Shown: positions 13,990 through 25,408 of the stretch, piece by piece
Layout of the letters: each line of letters starts with the position of its first letter
Position numbering within the stretch: the stretch's first letter is position 1
Assembly (NCBI RefSeq): GCF_963975745.1
Contig: NZ_CAXBIB010000007.1
Location: 33,340-97,339, forward strand
Length of the DNA: 64,000 nt
DNA from: an uncultured Parvibaculum sp.
GTDB taxonomy: Bacteria; Pseudomonadota; Alphaproteobacteria; Parvibaculales; Parvibaculaceae
Direction of reading: 5' to 3'
Program-made: the position numbers and the translations under genes
Notes under the pieces: model-generated
Database searches by the model: none
What the model was told of the DNA's origin: nothing
What the model saw: only the letters and a program-made list of their open reading frames with translations

Positions 13990-16068
13990 ATGACCAAGAT
14001 CAACGATGTCGCCACGCTGGAAAAAGACGGCGAGGTCGCCGTCCTGACGCTGAACTCGCCGCCCGTCAACGCGCTTTCGGCGCCGGTGCGCGAAGGCATC
14101 ACCAACGGCATCAAGCAGGCGATCGACGACGCGGACGTCAAGGCGATCGTGCTGATCTGCGACGGGCGCACCTTCATCGCCGGCGCCGACATCACCGAAT
14201 TCGGCAAGGCGCCGAAGGGTCCGAGCCTGTTCGACGCGCAGGCCATGATCGAGAACGCACCGAAACCGGTCATCGCCGCGATTCACGGAACGGCGCTGGG
14301 CGGCGGCCTCGAAGTGGCACTGACCTGCCATTACCGCGTGGCGGTGCCCTCGGCCAAATGCGGATTGCCGGAAGTCAATCTCGGCCTGCTGCCAGGCGCC
14401 GGCGGCACGCAGCGCCTGCCGCGCATCGTCGGTGCCGAAAAGGCGCTTGAGATGGTAACCAGCGGCCAACATGTCGGCGCCAGGAAGTGCCTCGAAATGG
14501 GTCTGGTAGACGAACTGGCCGAGGAGGGCAAGCTGCGCGAGGGCGCCGTCGCCTTCGCCAACAAGATCGTTGCCGAGAAGCGGCCGCTGAAGAAGGTGCG
14601 CGACCTCAACGACAAGGTCGAAGCGGCCCGCGGCAAGCCGGAAATCTTCGCCGATTTCCGCAAGGCCAATGCCCGCAAGTTCCGCGGCTTCCTGGCGCCC
14701 GAATACAACATCCAGTGCATCGAGGCGGCGGTGAACCTGCCCTTCGACGAAGGCATCAAGGTCGAGCAGAAGCTCTTCCGCGAACTGGTGACCGGCACGC
14801 AGTCGGCCGCACAGCGCCATGTCTTCTTCGCCGAACGCCAGGTGTGGAAACTGCCGGACGTGCCGGCCGACACGCCGACGATCCCGGTCGAGAAGGTCGG
14901 CATCATCGGCGCCGGCACGATGGGCGGCGGTATCGCCATGAACTTCCTCAATGTCGGCCTGCCCGTCACCATCGTCGAGACCAAGCAGGAAGCACTCGAC
15001 CGCGGCGTTGCCACGATCCGCAAGAATTACGAAAACTCGGCGAAAAAAGGCCGCTTCCCGATGGAGGAAGTCGAGAAGCGCATGGGCCTCCTCAAGGGTT
15101 CGCTCGACATGAAGGACCTTGCCGACAGCGACCTCGTGATCGAGGCGGTGTTCGAGAACATGGACATCAAGAAGCAGGTGTTCGGCAAGCTCGACGAAAT
15201 CGTCAAGCCGGGCGCAATCCTGGCGACCAACACCTCGGCCTTGAACATTGACGAGATCGCGACCGCCGTGAAGCGGCCGGAAGCGGTGATCGGCCTGCAC
15301 TTCTTCTCGCCGGCCAATGTGATGCGCCTGCTCGAAGTCGTGCGTGCCGACAAGACCTCGAAGCCCGTCATTGCGACCTCGATGCAGATCGCCAAGAAGA
15401 TCGGCAAGATCGCCGCGCTGGTCGGCGTCTGCCCCGGCTTCGTCGGCAACCGCATTCTGGCCCAGCGCCAGCGCGAGGCCCAGAAGCTGATCCTCGAAGG
15501 AGCGATGCCCTGGGATGTCGATCGCGTGCTCTACGATTTCGGCCTGCCGATGGGCCCCTTCGCAATGTCGGACCTTGCCGGCCTCGATATCGGCTGGTCG
15601 AAGGAGAAGTCGAAGGGTGAAACGATCCGCGACGTGCTTTGCGAGATGGACCGCCGCGGCCAGAAGACGGGCGCCGGCTTCTACGACTATGACGAAAACC
15701 GCAACGCGAAGCCCTCGCCGGTCGTCGAGAAGATCATTCTCGACTTCGCCCAGAAGAAGGGCATCAACCGCCGCAAGATTTCCGATGAGGAAATCCTCGA
15801 GCGCTGCATCTATCCAATGATCAACGAGGGCGCCAAGATTCTCGAAGAGGGCAAGGCGATCCGTTCCTCCGACATCGACATCGTCTGGATCAACGGCTAC
15901 GGATTCCCGGTCTATCGTGGCGGTCCGATGTTCTATGGCGACACGGTGGGCGCCGACAAGGTGCTGGCCAAGATGAAGGAATTCCAGGCGCAGATGGGCG
16001 ACGACTTCAAGCCCGCCGCACTTCTGGAAAAGATCGTCGCCGAGGGCAAGAAGTTCTCCGACTTCTGA
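13990..16068 (+). CDS. bifunctional enoyl-CoA hydratase / 3-hydroxyacyl-CoA dehydrogenase (FadB/FadN-like)
   Basis: N-terminal crotonase fold (FIAGADITEF, IAAIHGTALGGGLEVAL) followed by an NAD-binding dehydrogenase (VGIIGAGTMGGGIA). GGGAGG SD before the ATG. Confidence 0.9.
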   Translation: MTKINDVATLEKDGEVAVLTLNSPPVNALSAPVREGITNGIKQAIDDADVKAIVLICDGRTFIAGADITEFGKAPKGPSLFDAQAMIENAPKPVIAAIHGTALGGGLEVALTCHYRVAVPSAKCGLPEVNLGLLPGAGGTQRLPRIVGAEKALEMVTSGQHVGARKCLEMGLVDELAEEGKLREGAVAFANKIVAEKRPLKKVRDLNDKVEAARGKPEIFADFRKANARKFRGFLAPEYNIQCIEAAVNLPFDEGIKVEQKLFRELVTGTQSAAQRHVFFAERQVWKLPDVPADTPTIPVEKVGIIGAGTMGGGIAMNFLNVGLPVTIVETKQEALDRGVATIRKNYENSAKKGRFPMEEVEKRMGLLKGSLDMKDLADSDLVIEAVFENMDIKKQVFGKLDEIVKPGAILATNTSALNIDEIATAVKRPEAVIGLHFFSPANVMRLLEVVRADKTSKPVIATSMQIAKKIGKIAALVGVCPGFVGNRILAQRQREAQKLILEGAMPWDVDRVLYDFGLPMGPFAMSDLAGLDIGWSKEKSKGETIRDVLCEMDRRGQKTGAGFYDYDENRNAKPSPVVEKIILDFAQKKGINRRKISDEEILERCIYPMINEGAKILEEGKAIRSSDIDIVWINGYGFPVYRGGPMFYGDTVGADKVLAKMKEFQAQMGDDFKPAALLEKIVAEGKKFSDF

Positions 16069-16093
16069 GCGCTCGCCGGATGGAAACGAAAAG

Positions 16094-16126
16094 CGGGGCG
16101 GCCATCGGGCCGCCCCGTTTGCATTT
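16094..16126 (+). terminator. rho-independent terminator after the fadB-like gene
   Basis: 10-bp stem CGGGGCGGCC / GGCCGCCCCG with loop ATCG, followed by TTTGCATTT. A second perfect 16-bp palindrome GCCGCGCCGGCGCGGC sits at 16127-16142. Confidence 0.6.
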
Positions 16127-16186
16127 GCCGCGCCGGCGCGGCACCATCGCCGGCAACAACAAGAATCCTGCAGGGAGGAACGGCAG

Positions 16187-16555
16187 ATGAGCGCCAATGA
16201 AAAGATCATCCGCGATTTCGTCGATGCCTGGCCGCGTCTCGATGTCGACGAGATCACCGGCTATTTCGCCGCGGACGGCGTCTATCACAACATGATGCTC
16301 GATCCGGTGGCAGGCCAGACGGCGCTGAAGGGCTTCATTGGCGCCTTCATCGCCAACTGGTCGGATGTGAAGTGGGAGATCCTGACACTGGTCTCGAAAG
16401 GCGACACGGTGATTGCCGAGCGCGTCGACCGCATGAAGGTCGACGGCAAGCCGGTGGCGCTGCCCTGCTGCGGCGTCTTCGAAATGGAGAACGGCAAGAT
16501 CAAGGTCTGGCGTGACTATTTCGACCTCGCGACCTTCTCGAAAGCCGCGAACTGA
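16187..16555 (+). CDS. limonene-1,2-epoxide-hydrolase-like (SnoaL/NTF2-fold) protein
   Basis: VYHNM, AERVDR and GKIKVWRDYFDL align with the Tyr/Asn, Arg-x-Asp and Asp catalytic positions I recall for Rhodococcus LEH (MYQNM, TERVDV, WRDYFDL). AGGGAGG SD. Confidence 0.7.
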   Translation: MSANEKIIRDFVDAWPRLDVDEITGYFAADGVYHNMMLDPVAGQTALKGFIGAFIANWSDVKWEILTLVSKGDTVIAERVDRMKVDGKPVALPCCGVFEMENGKIKVWRDYFDLATFSKAAN

Positions 16556-16562
16556 CCTTGGC

Positions 16563-17306
16563 CTAGAAGTCCCAGCCCGGCCCCGGGATCGCGCGATAGG
16601 CCTGGGTCAGTGCATCCGACCATGAACGGCGCAGATCGGCGAAATAGGGATCGTCATCCTTGATGCGCCGCTGCAGCGCGACCTTCAGTGCCTTGCGGCG
16701 ATAAACCATCAGGTCGATCGGCATGCCGACCGAGAGGTTGGAACGCATGGTCGAATCCATCGAGATCAGCGCCAGCTTCAGCCCGTCGCCGAGATCGGTA
16801 TCGTAGCTGAGCGCGCGGTCGATGATCGGCTTGCCGTATTTGTGCTCGCCGATCTGCAGATAGGGCGTGTCCTCGGTCGCTTCGATGTAGTTGCCGGCCG
16901 AATAGACCTGGAACAGGCGCAACTCGCCATTGCCGACCTGGCCGCCCAGAAGAATCGAAACGTTGAAATCGCCGGCCTGCGCCTCGAGCGAGGGGCCGTC
17001 GGTGCGATAGACGTCGCGCACGGCCTGCCCCATCAACTGCGCGGCGCGCACCATGGTCGGCACGGTGTGCAGCGTTTCGAGCTCCTCGCCGTCGCCGAGC
17101 CTGACACCCTGCTCGACCGCCCGGTTGACGGCCGCCTGGCTGACCGCGAGATTGCCGGCCGTCATCAGCCCGATCACCCGGTCGCCCGGATGTTCGATGA
17201 CGGTCAGCTTGCGGAAGGTGGAGATGTTGTCGACGCCCGCATTGGTGCGGGTATCGGCCAGCATCACAAGGCCGCCTTCGAGCCGAAGCGCGACGCAATA
17301 GGTCAT
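16563..17306 (-). CDS. Anbu-type proteasome beta-subunit homologue (Ntn hydrolase)
   Basis: The protein begins MTYCVALRLEGGLVMLADTRTNAG, so Thr directly follows Met (Ntn nucleophile, no propeptide). It is the last gene of the ATP-grasp/alpha-E/transglutaminase operon. The ORF-track N-terminal extension to 17771 overlaps the transglutaminase gene and is Arg/Ala-rich. Confidence 0.8.
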   Translation of the reverse strand: MTYCVALRLEGGLVMLADTRTNAGVDNISTFRKLTVIEHPGDRVIGLMTAGNLAVSQAAVNRAVEQGVRLGDGEELETLHTVPTMVRAAQLMGQAVRDVYRTDGPSLEAQAGDFNVSILLGGQVGNGELRLFQVYSAGNYIEATEDTPYLQIGEHKYGKPIIDRALSYDTDLGDGLKLALISMDSTMRSNLSVGMPIDLMVYRRKALKVALQRRIKDDDPYFADLRRSWSDALTQAYRAIPGPGWDF

Positions 17307-17364
17307 CGAACTCTCCCGGTTCCGCCCGGCCGACAGCCGGGCCCCCCTGTTGCTTGTTGCCGTG

Positions 17365-18183
17365 TTACTGCTGCGCGGCGCCTGCATCCACCTTGAGGCG
17401 AACCTTGAGCGTTTCCTCGCCGCCGCCGCGCCGCCGACCCCGGACGGGCGATGCCTCCAGATAGTCGAGACCGCAGGCGACCCGGACATGCGCCGCAGTC
17501 GGACAGATGCGATTGGCGACGTCGAAGCCGACCCAGCCGAGGCCATCAATACAGGCTTCGGCCCAGGCATGGCTAGCCTCATATTCAGTATCGCCCTCGA
17601 ACCAGAGATAGCCGCTGACATAGCGCGCCGGCAGGCCGAGATGGCGGGCCGCCGAGAGAAAGACATGGGTGTGGTCCTGGCAGACGCCATAACCATGCGC
17701 CAGCGCCTCGGCGGCCGTTGTCGCCGCATGGGTTTCGCCGATCCGGTAGTCGACTCCATCGCGCACCGCATCCATCAGCCGGTGGGCGAGATCGATGGGC
17801 GTGCCGTCCGAGGCCGCCTTTGCGGCAGCGGCCAGCGCGCGGATCGCGGCATCGGGCGCCGTCAGTTCGGTCTGGCGCAGGAAGAAGAGCGGCGGCAGCG
17901 GCTCGGCTGTGCCGGCAACGATGCCGCCCGTATCCGATGTCTCGACCTCGCCCGCAACGCTGATCGTCAGCGCCTCGTGCAACTGATCGAGATAGAGCAT
18001 CTGCAGCACGTTGCCATAGGCATCGCGGCTTTCGCGGATGCGGCCGGCCGGCAGGGCGGCGACGCGCCAGGACAGGACCGTCTGCCCGGCATGGCCAAGC
18101 GGCACGAGCCGGAGCGCCTGCACCGAGTAATTGGCGGGGCCCTCGTAGCGATAGGTGGTGTCCTGGCGGATCAGAATGCGCAT
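17365..18183 (-). CDS. transglutaminase-like cysteine protease-fold protein
   Basis: N-terminal MRILIRQDTTYRYEGP (Bact_transglu_N-like) and the core GVCQDHTHVFLSAARHLGLPARYVSGY, which contains the catalytic-Cys context. Confidence 0.85.
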   Translation of the reverse strand: MRILIRQDTTYRYEGPANYSVQALRLVPLGHAGQTVLSWRVAALPAGRIRESRDAYGNVLQMLYLDQLHEALTISVAGEVETSDTGGIVAGTAEPLPPLFFLRQTELTAPDAAIRALAAAAKAASDGTPIDLAHRLMDAVRDGVDYRIGETHAATTAAEALAHGYGVCQDHTHVFLSAARHLGLPARYVSGYLWFEGDTEYEASHAWAEACIDGLGWVGFDVANRICPTAAHVRVACGLDYLEASPVRGRRRGGGEETLKVRLKVDAGAAQQ

Positions 18184-18196
18184 GAAAAATAGTCTA

Positions 18197-19138
18197 TCAC
18201 ATCAGATAGACGCGGCTGATTTCGGTGCCCAGCCTGTCGTTCTGCTCGATATGTTCGCTGAGGAACTCGTGCAGGCCCTGGCGGAACACATCCTCGACCC
18301 GGCCGAAGCGCAGCCGCGAATAGATCTGCCCGGCGACGCGATGTGCCTCGTTGCGCTGGCCATACTCCTCGCCGAGCCGGTCGAGGCAGTCCTTGATCTC
18401 GGCCGAACAGCTGATCAGCGAGCGTGGCATTTCCTCGCGCATGATCAGGAATTCGGCGATCAGCCAGGGCTTCAGTCCTTCGCGATAGACCGAATTGTAG
18501 CTGCGATAGCCCGAAACGGCGCGCAGGATCGAGGCCCATTGATAGTAGTCGACACCGCCGCCGACCTCGGCATGTTCGGGCAGCAGCAGGTGATACTTGA
18601 CGTCGAGAATGCGCGCGGTGTTGTCGCTGCGTTCGATGAAGGTGCCGAGCCGGGTGAAATGGTAGCGATCGCGGCGCAGCATGGTGGCGACCGTGCCGCC
18701 ATAGAAGAGCAGCGAGCGGTCCTTCACCCAGTCGAGAAAGCGATGCAGGCTGCTGCCGCGCACCCGCGCCTCGTTCCAGCCCGGCAGTTCGAGCCAGGTC
18801 GTGTTGAGGCTCTCCCATTGCTCGGTCGTCAGCGAGGTGCGCACGCCGCGCGCATTGCGCCGCGCGGTTTCGATGCAGGAACGGATGCTCGACGGATTCT
18901 CGGGATCGAAGGCGAGATAGGAAATGACGTTCTCGGGCGTCGCCTCCTCGTGCCTGGCATAGAATTCCTCCTCGCAACCCGAAACGACGACGGCCGAGTG
19001 CCATTCGCTGCCATCGGCATCGGTGCCCGAGGGCATCAGCGACAGCCGGTCGGTCACGCGCAGGATGCGGGCGAGACTTTCGGCGCGCTCCATGTAGCGG
19101 GCCAGCCAGTAGAGACTGTCGGCGGTGCGGCTCAGCAT
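18197..19138 (-). CDS. alpha-E domain protein (COG2307-like)
   Basis: I prefer the ATG at 19138, giving MLSRTADSLYWLARYMERAESLARIL, the typical alpha-E N-terminus. This leaves 4 nt to the upstream stop. Confidence 0.85.
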   Translation of the reverse strand: MLSRTADSLYWLARYMERAESLARILRVTDRLSLMPSGTDADGSEWHSAVVVSGCEEEFYARHEEATPENVISYLAFDPENPSSIRSCIETARRNARGVRTSLTTEQWESLNTTWLELPGWNEARVRGSSLHRFLDWVKDRSLLFYGGTVATMLRRDRYHFTRLGTFIERSDNTARILDVKYHLLLPEHAEVGGGVDYYQWASILRAVSGYRSYNSVYREGLKPWLIAEFLIMREEMPRSLISCSAEIKDCLDRLGEEYGQRNEAHRVAGQIYSRLRFGRVEDVFRQGLHEFLSEHIEQNDRLGTEISRVYLM

Positions 19139-19142
19139 GGCG

Positions 19143-20561
19143 TCATCCCTTGAGCACCCAGGTGTCCTTGGTGCCGCCGCCCTGGCTCGAATTGACGACC
19201 AGCGAGCCCTCGCGCATGGCAACCCGCGTCAGCCCGCCCGGCACGACGCGGATTTCGGCGCCGGACAGGATGAAGGGGCGAATATCGACATGGCGCGGCG
19301 CGACGCCCTCGTCGACAAAGGTCGGACAGGTCGACAGCGCCAGCGTGGGCTGGGCGATGTACTTGCCGGGCTTCGCCCGAACGCGTAACGCGAAGTCGGC
19401 AAGCTCGGCCTTGGTCGCCTTCGGCCCCACCAGCATGCCATAGCCGCCCGAGCCGTGAATCTCCTTGACCACCAGTTCATCGAGATGCTCGAGCACATAG
19501 GCGGCGTCGTCCGGCTCGCTGCAGCGCCATGTCGGCACGTTCTTCAGGATGGGCTGCTCGCCGAGATAGAACTCGATCATTTTCGGCACATAGGTGTAGA
19601 TCGACTTGTCGTCGGCAATGCCGGCGCCCACCGCATTGGTCAGATTGACGTTGCCGGCGCGATAGGCGCTCATCAGCCCGGCCACGCCCAGCGCCGAATC
19701 CGGCCGGAAGGTCAGCGGATCGAGAAACTCGTCATCGACGCGGCGATAGATCACGTCGACGCGCTTCGGCCCCTGTGTGGTGCGCATGTAGACGACATCG
19801 TCCATCACATAGAGATCGGGCCCTTCGACCAGCTCGACCCCCATCTGGTCGGCCAGGAAGGAATGCTCGTAATAGGCGCTGTTGTAGATGCCGGGCGTCA
19901 GCACTGCGACGGTCGGCTCGCCGACGCAGTTGCGCGGCGCAATCGATGTCAGCGTCCGCATCAGCTCGTCGCAATAATGGTCGACCGGCGCGACATTGTA
20001 GCGCGAGAAGAGATCGGGAAAGAGCCGCATCGTGATTTCGCGGTTCTCCAGCATGTAGGATACACCGGACGGGGTGCGGCAATTGTCCTCGAGCACGTAG
20101 AATTCGTCCGGCCCGACGCGTACCATGTCGATGCCAGCGATATGGGTGTAGATGTCGTGCGGCAGTGCGACGCCCTGCATCTGGCAGCGCCATGCTTCGT
20201 TCAGCAGGACCTCCTCGCGCGGCACATGGCCGGCGGCGAGAATGTCCTGCGCACCATAGACATCGGCAATGAAGGCATTGAGCGCCTTGACGCGCTGTAT
20301 GAGGCCGTCGGAAATCTGCTTCCACTCGGCCGCCTCGAGAATGCGCGGGATGATGTCGAAGGGAATGATGCGCTCCGGATCGCCTCCCTCGCCATAGACC
20401 GCGAAGGTGATGCCGGCCCGGCGAAAGAAGGTTTCCGCCTCTTCGCGGCGCAACGTCAGAATCTCGGTCGGCGTCTCGTCGAGCCAGGCTTGCAGTGTCC
20501 GATAGGCCTGCCGGACCTCCGCGCCCCGGGATCCCATTTCGTCAAAGAAGGCCGACGCCAT
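19143..20561 (-). CDS. circularly permuted type-2 ATP-grasp protein (COG2308-like amidoligase)
   Basis: 472 aa and first in the four-gene operon. Its length and conserved blocks (FDIIPRIL, YVLEDNCRTPSGVSYMLENR, PGGLTRVA) match my recollection of this family. AGGAG SD. Confidence 0.85.
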   Translation of the reverse strand: MASAFFDEMGSRGAEVRQAYRTLQAWLDETPTEILTLRREEAETFFRRAGITFAVYGEGGDPERIIPFDIIPRILEAAEWKQISDGLIQRVKALNAFIADVYGAQDILAAGHVPREEVLLNEAWRCQMQGVALPHDIYTHIAGIDMVRVGPDEFYVLEDNCRTPSGVSYMLENREITMRLFPDLFSRYNVAPVDHYCDELMRTLTSIAPRNCVGEPTVAVLTPGIYNSAYYEHSFLADQMGVELVEGPDLYVMDDVVYMRTTQGPKRVDVIYRRVDDEFLDPLTFRPDSALGVAGLMSAYRAGNVNLTNAVGAGIADDKSIYTYVPKMIEFYLGEQPILKNVPTWRCSEPDDAAYVLEHLDELVVKEIHGSGGYGMLVGPKATKAELADFALRVRAKPGKYIAQPTLALSTCPTFVDEGVAPRHVDIRPFILSGAEIRVVPGGLTRVAMREGSLVVNSSQGGGTKDTWVLKG

Positions 20562-20714
20562 GATGCTCCTGTCGTTTGCGGCGAATTTTTTCGCCCCCTG
20601 ACCCTACAGGGACAGCAAGAGAGATGCCATGCCGGGAAATGCGACGTTTGCGGCATTGGCACCGGAAAATGGACAACTGCCGTCGAAAAAACAGGCAATC
20701 TGCCCAAATGAACT

Positions 20715-21998
20715 TCAGTGGCGGCGCAGTTTTTCGAGCAGCGCAGGTGTCGGATAGCCGTCGGCCGGCAGACCGGCCGAAACCTGATAGGCCCGGATCG
20801 CCTTGCGCGTGTTGAAGCCGATAATGCCGTCGACGCCGCCGGTATCGTAGCCGCGCGCAGACAGCAGGCGTTGCAGGTCCATGCGTTCGGTGCGGCCGAG
20901 CGGCCGGTCGCTGCGCGGCCAGTCGGCCACGATCTCGCCGCGCCCTTTGTAGCGATCGGCCAGAAGATGAACGGCCAGCGCATAGGAGGTCGCCGCATTG
21001 TAGGCAAGGACCGTGCGGAAATTGTGCATCACCAGAAAGGCCGGGCCGCGATGGCCGGAGGGCAGGAAGATCGATGCCTTTTCCTCGGCCTCGCCGCCGG
21101 GAAAGGGCCGCCCGTCGACACGCGCAACGCCGGCCCTGGCCCATTCGGCCTGCGGCCTGGATATCGACATGTCGGCATCGGCATAGGCAAAGCCTTGCGG
21201 AAGCCTGACCTCGTAGCCCCAGACGGCGCCGCCGCGCCAGCCGGAATTCTGGAGATAGTGGCCGGCCGATGCCAGCGCATCGGCATGCGAGTTCCAGATG
21301 TCGCGCTTGCCGTTGCCGTCGAAATCGACCGCATGGGCATTGTAGGTCGTCGGAATGAACTGCGTCTGGCCCATGGCGCCAGCCCAGGAACCGAGCATGT
21401 TTTCCGGCTCGATGTCGCCTTTCTGGATGATCTGCAAGGCCGCAATCAGCTGCGTGCGGCCATAATCCGTGCGCCGCCCCTTGTAGCCCAGCGTCGCCAG
21501 CGAGCGCACCACGCTCATATTGCCCTGGAAGGAGCCGTAATTGGATTCAAGGCCCCAGATCGCGACCAGCACATGCCGGTCGACGCCATAGGCCTTTTCG
21601 ATGCGCTCGAGCAGCGCCCTGTTATCGGCCAGCAATGCCTTGCCGCGGGCGACCCGCGTCTCCGACAGCGCACTTTCGAGATATTCCCAGACCGGCCGGG
21701 TGAACTCGGGCTGACTTTCATTGGCCTCGACCACGCGCGGATCGGGACCGACCCCGCGCATCGCGCGGTCGAAAATCTGCGGCGCGACGCCCGCCTTGAG
21801 CGCCGCCTCGCGAAAACCGGTCAGCCAGTCGGCAAACTGCACGTCATCGACCTGGGCGGCCGGACTGCCCGGCGGCGGCAACGGCAGACCGGGTTGCGCA
21901 TCGGCGGCACAGCCGGTCACCGCAAGACCCAGCAGCGCGAGGGCCGCTGCGGCAACGCGCAACGGGCGCCGGACGGCTGGACGGACAGAAATGGGCAT
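20715..21998 (-). CDS. lytic murein transglycosylase (MltB/SLT_2-like) with C-terminal peptidoglycan-binding domain; probable lipoprotein
   Basis: GSWAGAMGQTQFIPTTY core, and a C-terminal PG_binding_1-like LLSARGYDTGGVDGIIGFNTRKAIRAYQ. The start at 21998 gives MPISVRPAV...LLGLAVTGC, a lipobox-like sequence. Confidence 0.85.
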   Translation of the reverse strand: MPISVRPAVRRPLRVAAAALALLGLAVTGCAADAQPGLPLPPPGSPAAQVDDVQFADWLTGFREAALKAGVAPQIFDRAMRGVGPDPRVVEANESQPEFTRPVWEYLESALSETRVARGKALLADNRALLERIEKAYGVDRHVLVAIWGLESNYGSFQGNMSVVRSLATLGYKGRRTDYGRTQLIAALQIIQKGDIEPENMLGSWAGAMGQTQFIPTTYNAHAVDFDGNGKRDIWNSHADALASAGHYLQNSGWRGGAVWGYEVRLPQGFAYADADMSISRPQAEWARAGVARVDGRPFPGGEAEEKASIFLPSGHRGPAFLVMHNFRTVLAYNAATSYALAVHLLADRYKGRGEIVADWPRSDRPLGRTERMDLQRLLSARGYDTGGVDGIIGFNTRKAIRAYQVSAGLPADGYPTPALLEKLRRH

Positions 21999-22033
21999 CG
22001 AGGACTCCAAGGCATATCGTTCGACAGACGCTA

Positions 22034-24019
22034 TCACGGCCCGGTTAAAAATCGAGCGACCGCGACGCCGCCAACCTCGAGGACCGCGCCCCCGAGCCGG
22101 AACTCCCTATCGGTCAAATAAGGCGAGATGTCGACCGGCCCCGGCCCGTAGTTGAAGATGAATTGGAAGGGACCGCGCCGCCGCGTCCTGAGGCCAGCCG
22201 GCAGCGCGGCGACGGCAAGACCTGCCTCCTGCGCCAGCCGTTCGACCACCTGTTGCAGCAGGCCGGCATCGGGCGCGCCGGCCAGGTAGTGCGCGCGGCC
22301 ACTCCGCGTCCATGCCGGATGCCCGTCCGCCGTCTCGGCGAGGACTTCCGTGCCCGGCGCCGTGACGACGAATTCGCGCCAGCGGTCGAAACTGAAGCTC
22401 TCATTGCCGATTCGCACCGGAACAGCCGAGCCGGGCCGGAAGCTCTCGACCCGTGTCACCTTGAGACCGAGCAGATCCTGAAGCGGTCCCGGCGCCAGAT
22501 TGTCGGGGATGCGGTGCGCGGCGGTTCGGCTGCCCGTACGCGGTGCGATCAGCAAGTGCCCCCGGCAATTGGCAAGCGATGCGGCCAGCACATCCGGCAC
22601 ATGCGGCATCGGCGGCACCAGCACCAGCGCGTAGGACGCAAGATCGGCATGCGGACCGACCACATCGATGTCGAGGCCCAGACGCCGCAGCGCGCGGTAC
22701 ATCGCAAAGGCCTGCTCGATATAGGTGAAGTTGCGGCCCTGGGGCTGCACGCGCAGGAACCATGCCGCTTCGTAGGAGAAGACCAGCGCGACCTTTGCCG
22801 GCGCGGGCGCCCCGAGCGGGCCCAGCGCAGCGAGATCGGCCGCCAGCTGCTCGACCTCGTGAAGCGCGCGGTCGGGCGTGTCGTCCGGCAGATTGAGGCC
22901 GGCATGAAACTGCTCCTGCGCAAAGGGCGCCTGCCGCCAGCGGAAATAGGAGATCGTTTCGGCGCCATGGGCAAAGCCTTCGAGGCCCCAGAGGCGGACG
23001 AGACCGGGCGCGGCATCGGTATTGTATTGCGCCCAGTTGACCGGCCCCGGCTGCTGCTCCATCACCCAGAAGCGCCCACGCCCCGCGCCGCGATAGAGAT
23101 CGTGATGAAAACCCTGCAGATCGGGATCGCCGGTGCGCGCAAAGGCCGCCTTGTGCGACGCTTCGCCCGGAAAGACGTCGAGACTGCCCAGCGGATAGGA
23201 ATCCCAGGTCGCAATGTCGAGATCCTTCATCACCTCGTAGTGATCGAAATCGAGAAAGAAGGTCATGAAATTGTGCAGGATGTCGCGTCCCGGCGAGAGC
23301 GCCCGGATGATCGCCGTCTGCACACGATTGAAGGCCGCGACCTGGTCCGATGCATAGCGATGGAAATCGACGCGATGTGCCGGATTGGTTTCGGTGACGG
23401 CGCCTGCCGGCAGATCGATCTCGGCAAAGTCGCGATATTCCATGCTCCAGAAGACATTGCCCCAGGCTTCGTTGAGCGCGTGGATGTCGCCATAGCGCTC
23501 CTTCAGCCAGTGGCGAAAGCCGATCAGCGCTTCATGCGACCAGGAAAGCACCGTGTCATGGCAGCCATATTCATTGTCGGTTTGCCAGGCGACGATACCG
23601 GGATGCCGACCGAAGCGTTCGGCAAGCGCGGTCACGATCCGGGCGCATTCGTGGCGGTACCCCGCATGTGAAAAGCAGTAATGCCGGCGCGAGGCGAAAC
23701 CGCGCGCGCGGCCGCGGGCGTCGACCGGCAGCATGTCGGGCATCTGGTCGACCAGCCATTTCGGCGGCGTCGCGGTCGGCGTGCCGAGCACCACTTCGAG
23801 CCCCGCCGCATGCAGCGTATCGAGGGCACGGCCCAGCCAGTCGAAGTCGAGATGGCCGGGCCTGGGTTCGAGCCGCGACCAGGCGAATTCACCGATCCGC
23901 ACGCGCGTGATGCCCGCCGCGCGCATCCGCCGTGCATCGTCGGCCCACATCGCCTCCGGCCAGTGCTCGGGGTAGTAGCAGACACCGATCGTGACGTCGG
24001 TGGCGCGTGGTTCGGCCAT
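22034..24019 (-). CDS. beta-galactosidase, glycoside hydrolase family 42
   Basis: N-terminus IGVCYYPEHWPEAMWADDARRMRAAGITRVRIGEFAWSRLEP and WQTDNEYGCH are typical of GH42. Confidence 0.9.
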   Translation of the reverse strand: MAEPRATDVTIGVCYYPEHWPEAMWADDARRMRAAGITRVRIGEFAWSRLEPRPGHLDFDWLGRALDTLHAAGLEVVLGTPTATPPKWLVDQMPDMLPVDARGRARGFASRRHYCFSHAGYRHECARIVTALAERFGRHPGIVAWQTDNEYGCHDTVLSWSHEALIGFRHWLKERYGDIHALNEAWGNVFWSMEYRDFAEIDLPAGAVTETNPAHRVDFHRYASDQVAAFNRVQTAIIRALSPGRDILHNFMTFFLDFDHYEVMKDLDIATWDSYPLGSLDVFPGEASHKAAFARTGDPDLQGFHHDLYRGAGRGRFWVMEQQPGPVNWAQYNTDAAPGLVRLWGLEGFAHGAETISYFRWRQAPFAQEQFHAGLNLPDDTPDRALHEVEQLAADLAALGPLGAPAPAKVALVFSYEAAWFLRVQPQGRNFTYIEQAFAMYRALRRLGLDIDVVGPHADLASYALVLVPPMPHVPDVLAASLANCRGHLLIAPRTGSRTAAHRIPDNLAPGPLQDLLGLKVTRVESFRPGSAVPVRIGNESFSFDRWREFVVTAPGTEVLAETADGHPAWTRSGRAHYLAGAPDAGLLQQVVERLAQEAGLAVAALPAGLRTRRRGPFQFIFNYGPGPVDISPYLTDREFRLGGAVLEVGGVAVARFLTGP

Positions 24020-24094: not shown

Positions 24095-25408
24095 ATGACC
24101 AGAGTTTGCATGATCGGCGCGGGCAGCACGGTCTTCATGAAGAATCTGGTCGGCGACATCCTGTTGAACGATGTTTTCGCCGATTGCGAGATCGCGCTTC
24201 ACGACATCGACGAGGCCCGCCTGAAGACTTCGGCGATCGTTGCGGCCAAGATCGCCGACAGCCTCTCGGTCTCCCCCACGATCACTGCAACGACCGACCG
24301 GCGCGAGGCGTTGAAGGATGCCGATTTCGTCATCGTGATGATCCAGGTCGCCGGCTACAAGCCCGGCACCGTCACCGACTTCGAAATTCCGAAGAGATAC
24401 GGCCTTCGGCAGACCATTGCCGACACGCTGGGTGTCGGCGGCATCATGCGCGGGCTGCGCACTGTGCCGGTGCTGCTCGAGATCGCAAACGATATGCGCG
24501 AACTCTGCCCAAAGGCGTTGATGCTGCAATATGTCAATCCGATGGCAATCAATTGCTGGGCGCTGAACCGCATGGCGCCCGACATCCGACATGTCGGCCT
24601 CTGCCACTCGGTCCAGGGCACCGCCTGGGAACTCTCGAAGGATCTCGGTGTCGACTACAAGTCGCTGCGCTACCAATGCGCCGGCATCAACCACATGGCT
24701 TTCTACACGCGGTTCGAACACGAGCGGCCCGATGGCACGCGCGAGGACCTCTATCCGCGATTGAAGGAAATTGCCGCCTCGGATGCCGAACCCGAATGGA
24801 ACAAGGTACGATACGAGGTGCTGCGTCGAACCGGCTATTTCGTCACCGAATCGAGCGAGCATTTTGCCGAATATGTGCCCTGGTTCATCAAGCGCGACCG
24901 GCCGGAGCTGATCGAGAAATTCAATATACCTCTCGACGAATATATCCGCCGCTGCGAGGAACAGATTTCGGCATGGGATGCCCAGGAGCGCGATCTTGTC
25001 TCGGCCAACCGCCTGGAGGTCAAGTTCTCGGGCGAATATGGTGCCAAGATCATGCGTGCCGTCGTTTCGGGCAAGCCGGCCGTCATCAACGGCAATGTCG
25101 CCAATCACGGCCTGATCGATAACCTGCCGGCTGGCGCCTGCGTCGAGGTGCCGTGCCGCATCGATGCGAACGGGGTGACACCAACGAACGTGGGCACGCT
25201 GCCGCCGCATCTGGCCGCATTGATGCAGACCAACATCAATGTGCAGGCGCTGACGCTGGAGGCGCTGGCAACCGGCAAACGGGAGCATATCTACCACGCT
25301 GCCATGCTGGACCCCCATACCGCCGCCGAATTGTCGCTCGACCAGATCTGGAATCTCGTCGACGACCTGATCGAGGCGCATGGGGACTGGCTGCCGCGCT
25401 TCCGCTGA
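24095..25408 (+). CDS. GH4 alpha-galactosidase/alpha-glucosidase (NAD/Mn-dependent)
   Basis: The start at 24095 gives MTRVCMIGAGSTVFMKNL (Rossmann fold) after a GGAAGGA SD. GLCHSVQGT is the GH4 Cys-His site. The ORF-track start at 23681 overlaps the divergent GH42 gene. Confidence 0.85.
   Translation: MTRVCMIGAGSTVFMKNLVGDILLNDVFADCEIALHDIDEARLKTSAIVAAKIADSLSVSPTITATTDRREALKDADFVIVMIQVAGYKPGTVTDFEIPKRYGLRQTIADTLGVGGIMRGLRTVPVLLEIANDMRELCPKALMLQYVNPMAINCWALNRMAPDIRHVGLCHSVQGTAWELSKDLGVDYKSLRYQCAGINHMAFYTRFEHERPDGTREDLYPRLKEIAASDAEPEWNKVRYEVLRRTGYFVTESSEHFAEYVPWFIKRDRPELIEKFNIPLDEYIRRCEEQISAWDAQERDLVSANRLEVKFSGEYGAKIMRAVVSGKPAVINGNVANHGLIDNLPAGACVEVPCRIDANGVTPTNVGTLPPHLAALMQTNINVQALTLEALATGKREHIYHAAMLDPHTAAELSLDQIWNLVDDLIEAHGDWLPRFR

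Follow-up and report, generated by a model that had tools for sequence, protein, structure and literature searches.

The gene cluster described here is almost certainly an Anbu-1-type operon of the canonical form already published, found in a Parvibaculum-type alphaproteobacterium, and it probably has its own sigma-54 promoter, as predicted from the sequence. The explanation that we favor as a whole, with somewhat better than even confidence, is a canonical Anbu-1 operon with its own sigma-54 promoter that would be induced by starvation and would couple ligation to hydrolysis. New at this locus are the predicted sigma-54 promoter, the lack of support for a link to the cell envelope and the glutamine tail of the transglutaminase-like protein. 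The cluster lies in a window of 64,000 nt (the whole stretch of DNA that was analysed). Its four ORFs are all on the minus strand and are separated by gaps of exactly 4, 13 and 58 nt, listed here in the order of transcription:

19143 to 20561, minus strand: circularly permuted ATP-grasp (cpATP-grasp) ligase of the COG2308 type, 472 aa (PF14403, 1.8e-165; PF04174, 6.8e-151)
18197 to 19138, minus strand: Alpha-E protein, 313 aa, all-helical ATP-grasp partner (PF04168, 3.8e-100, full length)
17365 to 18183, minus strand: transglutaminase-like cysteine enzyme, 272 aa, with Bact_transglu_N and Transglut_core domains (PF01841, 6.5e-23; PF08379, 1.1e-19)
16563 to 17306, minus strand: Anbu-1-type Anbu (ancestral beta subunit), 247 aa, a proteasome-like Ntn hydrolase (PF00227; PDB Anbu chains)

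The first-pass annotation had named these families in this order with these gaps, and the ORF coordinates bear it out to the base. All four proteins were placed in their families by HMM search (Pfam PF14403/PF04174, PF04168, PF08379 with PF01841, and PF00227) and the structures agree (PDB 3N6X and 3ISR, and Anbu entries 5LOY, 5NYJ and 5LOX). The quartet is, as had been claimed, a conserved and previously described system (Valas and Bourne, 2008; Iyer et al., 2009; Fuchs et al., 2017; Piasecka et al., 2018; Vielberg et al., 2018), whose exact four-gene order is defined in the literature (PMC6376114, PMC5666114). The further claim that it has no established substrate agrees with the literature. 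Anbu homologs turned up in 119 of the 401 genomes sampled from the phylum; since the operon is also of the canonical published type, the cluster is already known and ordinary. Of 40 alphaproteobacterial Anbu loci, 32 preserve the order ATP-grasp, Alpha-E, Anbu, and in 26 of these a transglutaminase gene stands in between. The canonical operons of P. aeruginosa, Y. bercovieri and P. putida (PP_2685-PP_2688) share these four families and their order, all on a single strand, with Thr1 directly after Met, the Anbu-1 S1 pocket and no adjacent AAA+ ATPase. Nothing essential differs at this locus, where the host is an alphaproteobacterium (Parvibaculum). No AAA+ unfoldase gene adjoins Anbu here: the flanks are an SLT_2 transglycosylase gene upstream and a convergent LEH/SnoaL-like gene downstream. 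A search with the PADLOC models (E up to 0.01) returned no defence-system family for any of the four proteins.

The transglycosylase stop and the ATP-grasp start are 153 nt apart. This leader contains no small ORF and carries the following features:

20614 to 20629, minus strand: predicted sigma-54 (-24/-12) promoter box TGGCATCTCTCTTGCT, 52 nt upstream of the cpATP-grasp ATG
20678 to 20706, minus strand: GGCA-GAT-TGCC hairpin followed by a T-run, overlapping a TGCC-N12-GGCA dyad, just past the transglycosylase stop

The predicted box reads TGGCAT-N5-TTGCT and is on the right strand in the right place, with its -24 GG and -12 GC elements spaced exactly as in the sigma-54 pattern TGGCAC-N5-TTGCW; an AGGAG Shine-Dalgarno sequence precedes the cpATP-grasp ATG. 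Scanning both strands of the 64 kb window with TGGCAY-N5-TTGCW gave this box as the sole match (0.14 expected). The intergenic alignment of seven Parvibaculum loci shows diverged flanks around a core, this box, that is invariant in all seven. Of 32 further Anbu operons from alphaproteobacteria, 12 carry a sense-strand box no more than 350 nt from the ATG and none has one in antisense orientation, against a background rate of 0.01-0.02 per 350 nt; no recognisable box was found in the remaining 20. Four of 17 loci of other classes also have a box. The genome encodes rpoN, and inside the cluster no site resembling a sigma-70 promoter was detected. We infer that all four genes most likely share a transcript that begins at the operon's own sigma-54 promoter and does not come from read-through of the transglycosylase gene, both the transcript and its start being predictions.

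The hairpin next to the transglycosylase stop was flagged in part by the terminator-like scan (20692-20706). Its fold is weak (-5.9 kcal/mol, z -0.04), so some read-through from the transglycosylase gene is possible. The sequence block at 20678-20706 is conserved in Parvibaculum, and a similar dyad with an A/T-rich spacer lies upstream of the sigma-54 boxes in 8 of 19 loci, by a pattern defined post hoc. The element may act as a weak terminator, as a binding site for an activator, or in both ways. The first-pass annotation had placed a lytic transglycosylase and galactosidases upstream on the same strand. This holds for the transglycosylase (SLT_2/PG_binding_1) and for one GH42 beta-galactosidase; another glycosidase gene, GH4 at 24095-25408, lies on the other strand. 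From these neighbors a link to envelope or stress turnover had been called conceivable. In an envelope-turnover unit of this kind, the four genes would be tied to the transglycosylase and the beta-galactosidase and read from a common upstream promoter. The shared strand, the short distance of only 153 nt, the weak hairpin and the conservation of the transglycosylase neighborhood in six Parvibaculum loci speak for such a unit, but neither a transglycosylase nor a GH42 gene adjoins the Anbu operon in any of 41 loci from other alphaproteobacteria. The synteny is therefore limited to the genus and the envelope link is not supported. In addition, the conserved sigma-54 promoter separates the operon from these neighbors, no export is known for any of the four proteins and Anbu needs a free cytoplasmic N-terminus. 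We consider the envelope-turnover unit very improbable.

An inducing condition is already known for homologous clusters. In P. putida, nitrogen limitation raises PP_2686-2688 11-37 fold, and NtrB/NtrC is given as the regulator of PP_2685-2688 (PMC7801951). At least one of the clusters that consist of cpATP-grasp, Alpha-E and transglutaminase genes and lack Anbu, I35_5080-83 of B. cenocepacia, depends on sigma-54 and NtrC (PMC5491218). The sigma-54 box found here fits the nitrogen-limitation induction published for Pseudomonas and Burkholderia. The P. putida mutants of the cluster are viable and its expression is unchanged under many stresses. In marine metagenomes the abundances of the cluster's domains co-vary with urea-metabolism domains (PMC3597751). 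The matching promoter at this locus had been missed in the first-pass annotation. No NtrC-type dyad (TGCACC-N5-GGTGCA type, at most one mismatch) was found within 570 nt upstream of the box, or upstream of any of the 19 alphaproteobacterial sigma-54 boxes; as positive controls, the dyad was found at glnK of the same genome and upstream of the boxes in beta/gamma-like Anbu loci. In this respect the locus differs from the beta/gamma-like Anbu loci that were inspected. A GAFTGA loop is present in NtrC, FlbD and a third, unclassified activator of this genome, while NtrX is without GAFTGA. By analogy with P. putida and B. cenocepacia, nitrogen limitation or some related starvation signal would most likely induce the operon, and the activator would be an enhancer-binding protein. 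We give even chances to nitrogen-limitation control in this organism.

The cpATP-grasp protein matches PDB 3N6X from end to end (1.4e-203). The Alpha-E gene follows directly downstream with the gap of 4 nt. Its product shows invariant motifs in 34 homologs (R14-Y15-x-E17-R18, E169-R170-x-D172-N173-T174-A175-R176 and M237-P238-R239-S240-L241) and its AlphaFold2 model is all helix (pLDDT 82.7, pTM 0.83); neither sequence search nor fold search found a PDB relative. The Yersinia ATP-grasp releases phosphate from ATP (PMC6376114). In the transglutaminase-like protein the noted cysteine context GVCQDH is present, with Cys168 as the cysteine, and the predicted triad Cys168/His205/Asp221 aligns with the catalytic residues of PDB 3ISR. 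Anbu begins with M-T-Y-C as had been read from the sequence, so that Thr1 directly follows Met without a propeptide. It matches the PDB chains 5LOY, 5NYJ, 5NYF, 5NYW and 5LOX with E values of 7e-87 to 5e-66, in line with the earlier statement that Anbu structures exist. The best match is 5LOY, the Anbu-1 consensus protein, and the alignment begins at the Thr. Numbered from Thr as residue 1, Anbu has D17 and K32, in agreement with the Asp17 and Lys32/33 signature, and all five Anbu-1 S1 pocket residues (T20, F30, T48, L52 and S55) (PMC5666114). One more element lies in the spacer of 58 nt between the transglutaminase-like gene and Anbu:

17324 to 17342, minus strand: GC-rich hairpin with an 8 bp stem (centroid structure)

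The potential for this hairpin is kept in five of six Parvibaculum loci with differing sequences; it has no T-run and is thus no classical terminator.

In the proposed mechanism, the ATP-grasp/Alpha-E pair would use ATP to activate a carboxylate as acyl-phosphate and form an amide bond. Amide bonds would next be transferred or cleaved by two enzymes, the transglutaminase-like protein with its Cys-His-Asp triad and Anbu with its Thr1. With these steps in sequence, the module would couple ligation to hydrolysis in a peptide or protein turnover that recycles nitrogen. The scheme "ligate, modify and degrade" of the first-pass annotation is a hypothesis taken from the literature, and a ligate-then-hydrolyse role in nitrogen recycling is offered tentatively at less than even odds. 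Results in vitro speak against it: Anbu had no peptidase activity, formed no stable complex with its partners and did not stimulate the ATP-grasp (PMC6376114). Small-molecule nitrogen scavenging is a less probable reading: the ATP-grasp would join an amino acid to a nitrogen-rich metabolite (a polyamine or gamma-glutamyl compound) and the two hydrolases would free ammonia or amino acids. The E. coli Puu putrescine pathway follows the same logic of activation by ligation and subsequent hydrolysis. The depositors of 3N6X, the nearest ATP-grasp of solved structure, labelled it a putative glutathionylspermidine synthase. Homologous clusters are co-regulated with urea and nitrate scavenging genes (PMC7801951, PMC5491218), and the metagenomic co-variation with urea genes points in the same direction. 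Standard peptide substrates are not cleaved by Anbu in vitro, and some Ntn hydrolases are amidases or glutaminases (PMC6376114). Against this reading, the active site and S1 pocket of Anbu are still those of a proteasome-like enzyme, and peptide-based proteasome inhibitors bind to it (PMC5666114), the assembly described for Anbu is an open split ring of 12-14 subunits with an inner cavity, unusual for a small-molecule amidase, no transporter or oxidoreductase gene is found within the operon, and the ATP-grasp is not stimulated by glutamine or glutamate (PMC6376114).

The operon can be compared with two known proteolytic systems. HslV and Anbu are homologous Thr1 Ntn hydrolases, and both are encoded in this genome; unlike HslVU, Anbu lacks an unfoldase partner, and the two differ in their regulation according to the literature. 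The Pup-proteasome of actinobacteria consists of the ligase PafA, the deamidase Dop, the modifier Pup with a C-terminal Gln and the 20S proteasome, and it has a reported role in survival of nitrogen starvation. The Anbu operon likewise combines an ATP-dependent amide ligase with a proteasome-family hydrolase and encodes a protein with a conserved C-terminal Gln. Unlike in the Pup system, the ligase is an ATP-grasp and not of the glutamine-synthetase-like PafA/Dop fold, there are no alpha subunits and no AAA+ unfoldase, and Anbu is described as an open split ring instead of a closed barrel. The operon encodes no small disordered modifier ending in Gly-Gly-Gln/Glu; the Gln-ending protein is the 272-aa transglutaminase-like enzyme, which ends in AAQQ:

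17368 to 17373, minus strand: last two codons of the transglutaminase-like gene, C-terminal Gln-Gln (protein end ...DAGAAQQ)

Among the other Anbu-linked homologs from alphaproteobacteria, 26 of 31 end in Gln (27/32 counting this locus), and the terminal Gln also occurs in 11 of 15 canonical operons of other classes. In total, 38 of 47 canonical four-gene operons have it versus 2 of 54 transglutaminase-like ORFs at Anbu-less loci, in counts that ignore kinship, and the Anbu-linked small transglutaminases may be one subfamily. The Anbu-less clusters (for example B. cenocepacia I35_5080-83 and the Burkholderiales loci L011-L083) encode an ATP-grasp with 63-67% and an Alpha-E protein with about 40% sequence identity, and their transglutaminase is often larger than 1100 aa or located upstream. 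The distribution of the Gln favors a Pup-like or auto-tagging reading, in which the C-terminal Gln would serve as a handle that is deamidated or activated and then ligated or extended by ATP-grasp/Alpha-E, to be recognised or cleaved by Anbu. The residues ahead of the terminal Gln are variable and Q-rich, and the S1 pocket of Anbu-1 proteins is narrow and amphiphilic, with Thr/Ser as hydrogen-bonding residues (PMC5666114). In the published pull-down the transglutaminase carried a C-terminal FLAG tag, which would mask such a tail (PMC6376114). However, the Gln sits on an enzyme of 272 aa whose triad is intact and not on a small disordered tag, and the terminal Gln is missing in 9 of the 47 canonical operons. 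On balance we regard tagging as unlikely, slightly more so than small-molecule scavenging. The terminal Gln of the transglutaminase-like protein nevertheless offers a testable handle.

The minus-strand gene order cpATP-grasp, Alpha-E, small transglutaminase-like protein and Anbu is that of the published Anbu operon (PMC6376114, PMC5666114), and the locus is a canonical copy of this known and very common system. An ORF check returned the four minus-strand frames exactly at the places and with the gaps (4, 13 and 58 nt) reported in the first-pass annotation:

19143-20561, minus strand: circularly permuted ATP-grasp protein, 472 aa (Pfam CP_ATPgrasp_2/1, 1.8e-165)
18197-19138, minus strand: Alpha-E protein, 313 aa (Pfam Alpha-E, 3.8e-100)
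17365-18183, minus strand: transglutaminase-like protein, 272 aa (Pfam Bact_transglu_N and Transglut_core)
16563-17306, minus strand: Anbu, 247 aa (Pfam Proteasome)

The Alpha-E and Anbu starts were taken as the first Met fitting the family within a longer open frame. Pfam and PDB matches place all four proteins in the families proposed from the sequence. ATP-grasp aligned end to end with PDB 3N6X (1.4e-203), the transglutaminase-like protein matched 3ISR across the catalytic core, and Anbu matched all solved Anbu chains (E 5e-66 to 7e-87), with the Anbu-1 consensus protein 5LOY as the top match. The M-T-Y-C start of Anbu and the GVCQDH context of the transglutaminase, both pointed out earlier, are present, together with D17 and K32 in Anbu and Cys168 (within GVCQDH), His205 and Asp221 in the transglutaminase-like protein. 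All five Anbu-1 S1 pocket residues (T20, F30, T48, L52 and S55; criteria of PMC5666114) are found in the window's Anbu. None of the four proteins matched an NCBIfam model or a PADLOC defence model. An Rfam search of 16000-21200 gave two sub-threshold matches, both outside the operon, and no glutamine riboswitch.

From sequence and conservation we infer a dedicated sigma-54 promoter for the operon. The intergenic region upstream of the ATP-grasp gene (153 nt, with no small ORFs in this leader) contains the following element:

20614-20629, minus strand: TGGCATCTCTCTTGCT, a -24/-12 element of the sigma-54 type, exactly spaced; the ATG lies 52 nt downstream

It is the single match to TGGCAY-N5-TTGCW on both strands of the 64 kb window, where 0.14 were expected. 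In six further Parvibaculum loci for which upstream flank was available, the box lies 49-60 nt 5' of the ATG, and it forms the invariant core of the Parvibaculum intergenic alignment (mean column identity 65%). Among Anbu operons of other alphaproteobacterial families, TGGYA-N6-xTGC was found on the sense strand at most 350 nt from the ATP-grasp start in 12 of 32, and on the antisense strand in 0 of the same 32 (background 0.01-0.02 per 350 nt). Outside the Alphaproteobacteria, 4 of 17 loci also carry a box. The gene rpoN is present in the genome, and the four-gene cluster itself yielded no sigma-70-like site. Sigma-54 dependence of the operon is thus well supported as a prediction, and the predicted promoter spans several alphaproteobacterial lineages. 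It points to rpoN and to nitrogen or starvation signals as the first candidate for the inducing route. Genome-wide, 15 strict sigma-54 boxes were found and none precedes an obvious nitrogen gene, so that a regulon could not be drawn.

A nitrogen link has been reported for related systems. Nitrogen limitation raises expression of the homologous P. putida genes PP_2686-2688 by 11-37 fold, and NtrB/NtrC are the assigned regulators of PP_2685-2688 (PMC7801951). The B. cenocepacia relative, which lacks Anbu, is sigma-54 and NtrC dependent (PMC5491218), and in marine metagenomes the operon domains co-vary with urea metabolism domains (PMC3597751). In the window's genome only four enhancer-binding proteins were found: NtrC (TIGR01818, 720 bits), NtrX, FlbD and one unclassified response-regulator type. 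NtrC, FlbD and the unclassified activator carry the GAFTGA loop; NtrX does not (NtrC and NtrX at C1:154228-159711, a contig of the same genome). The loop is absent from Caulobacter NtrC, unlike the NtrC found here. With so few candidates, the activator of the Anbu operon should be easy to find by deletion.

In beta/gamma-like Anbu loci, NtrC-type dyads such as CGCACCATGGCAGTGCG and CGCACCAGAATGGCGCA precede the boxes by 70-120 nt. No NtrC dyad was found within 570 nt upstream of the box in the window, and none was seen upstream of 19 alphaproteobacterial boxes (2 matches vs 4.5 expected); glnK of the window's own genome has a canonical NtrC dyad. Control by NtrC in this lineage is therefore not well supported, and the Anbu operon activator in Alphaproteobacteria may be a protein other than NtrC. 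A different dyad, TGCC(G) and (C)GGCA separated by an A/T-rich spacer, recurs upstream of the Anbu-operon sigma-54 boxes in five alphaproteobacterial lineages, where the enteric-type NtrC dyads are absent; its pattern was defined post hoc and is enriched:

20678-20706, minus strand: TGCC-spacer-GGCA dyad, also found at comparison loci L006, L007, L009, L010, L123, L137, L140 and L142

The window's copy overlaps a weak terminator-like hairpin, and use of the dyad as a marker defined no regulon in the window's genome. It may be an activator binding site or only a terminator remnant.

Upstream of the operon are a lytic transglycosylase gene (SLT_2 and PG_binding_1) and then a GH42 galactosidase gene:

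20715-22037, minus strand: SLT_2/PG_binding_1 transglycosylase, with a lipobox-like LAVTGC after the signal peptide

The first-pass annotation had placed galactosidases upstream on the same strand and called a link to envelope or stress turnover conceivable. The placement holds for one glycosidase only (GH42); the GH4 gene runs divergently. The envelope link is not supported: both genes adjoin the operon only in Parvibaculum (0 of 41 other alphaproteobacterial Anbu loci), and the conserved promoter lies between them and the operon. A shared function of the operon and these envelope genes is the least likely of the readings considered. The longest frame of the transglycosylase overlaps the GH42 beta-galactosidase stop by 4 nt, an unusual pairing kept in several Parvibaculum loci.

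ATP-grasp enzymes form amide bonds by way of an acyl-phosphate. Enzymes with the transglutaminase fold act on amide bonds through a Cys-His-Asp triad, either transferring the acyl group or hydrolysing the bond, and Anbu is a Thr1 Ntn hydrolase. The operon may encode a starvation-induced module in which ATP-dependent ligation is coupled to amide hydrolysis in nitrogen recycling. Anbu-1 binds proteasome inhibitors; no Anbu peptidase activity on standard substrates and no stable Anbu complex with the operon partners were detected (PMC6376114, PMC5666114). A search of later literature found no assigned Anbu function. A small-molecule scavenging pathway is a rival explanation to the ligation and hydrolysis module. 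Structures of Anbu, a relative of the proteasome, have been solved, and the sigma-54 route together with a glutamine tail in the transglutaminase-like protein make the substrate question more testable.

The transglutaminase-like protein of the window ends in ...AAQQ (QQ codons at 17368-17373, minus strand). A terminal Gln (QQ, DQ, EQ or AQ) is found in 26 of 31 other alphaproteobacterial Anbu-linked homologs and in 11 of 15 canonical operons of other classes; the ten residues before it are variable and Q-rich. Over all canonical Anbu operons the count is 38 of 47, about 80% (L005-L010, L077 and L122-L201), vs 2 of the 54 transglutaminase-like ORFs at control ATP-grasp/Alpha-E loci lacking Anbu, these being raw counts uncorrected for phylogeny. 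By this comparison the Gln tail appears to track Anbu presence, which suggests that it is a handle for ligation or deamidation or that Anbu docks on it. One specific possibility is that the Anbu substrate handle is encoded in the operon itself. The tail would be deamidated or ATP-activated and then ligated by the ATP-grasp/Alpha-E pair, and the Anbu-1 S1 pocket would read or cleave it. Such self-tagging would resemble the Pup cycle, but it would use other folds and be under the control of a sigma-54 promoter; we consider it improbable. In the published pull-down the transglutaminase was FLAG-tagged at its C-terminus (PMC6376114), so that a Gln tail would have been masked. If the tail does act in this way, the C-terminal tag would partly account for the earlier in vitro failures. 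The tail offers a concrete biochemical handle on Anbu and a reason why tagged constructs may have failed.

Two hairpins were found at gene junctions within the operon. The terminator-like hairpin at 18192-18211 (Alpha-E/transglutaminase junction) is strain-specific and not conserved, and was rejected as a signal. The second precedes Anbu:

17324-17342, minus strand: GC-rich hairpin with an 8-bp stem, in the 58 nt between the transglutaminase-like gene and Anbu

Five of six Parvibaculum loci retain its pairing with differing sequences. Published RNA-seq of P. putida shows much weaker induction of Anbu than of the three genes ahead of it. Together these may reflect processing or partial termination before Anbu. 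At the other end of Anbu lies a convergent gene:

16187-16555, plus strand: LEH/SnoaL-like gene

Its end and the Anbu stop (16563) are 7 nt apart, which leaves no space for an intergenic terminator, so that a 3' overlap between the two transcripts is probable.

Alpha-E has invariant Arg/Glu-rich motifs in an alignment of 34 homologs. No PDB relative was found by sequence. The AlphaFold2 model is all-helical and confident (pLDDT 82.7, pTM 0.83) and has no PDB fold neighbor at E up to 0.001, and therefore gave no functional lead. The modeled fold appears to be unrepresented among solved structures.

Of 401 genomes sampled across the phylum, 119 (about 30%) have an Anbu homolog, as do 54 of 301 sampled Alphaproteobacteria, roughly a fifth. 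The window's genome, that of a Parvibaculum-type alphaproteobacterium, carries a single Alpha-E gene and encodes HslV as well as Anbu. Of two genomes from the same family (G010 and G195), one has an Anbu 53% identical to that of the window and the other has none; Anbu proteins from other families reach 65% identity. Such scattered occurrence suggests that Anbu has been lost and laterally transferred. Eight of 40 alphaproteobacterial loci have Anbu with no ATP-grasp within 4.7 kb (three of the eight end at a contig edge), and some operons consist of ATP-grasp, Alpha-E and Anbu only. These natural variants without transglutaminase or without ATP-grasp (L125, L130, L135, L138, L145, L150, L178 and L180) are useful for comparison.
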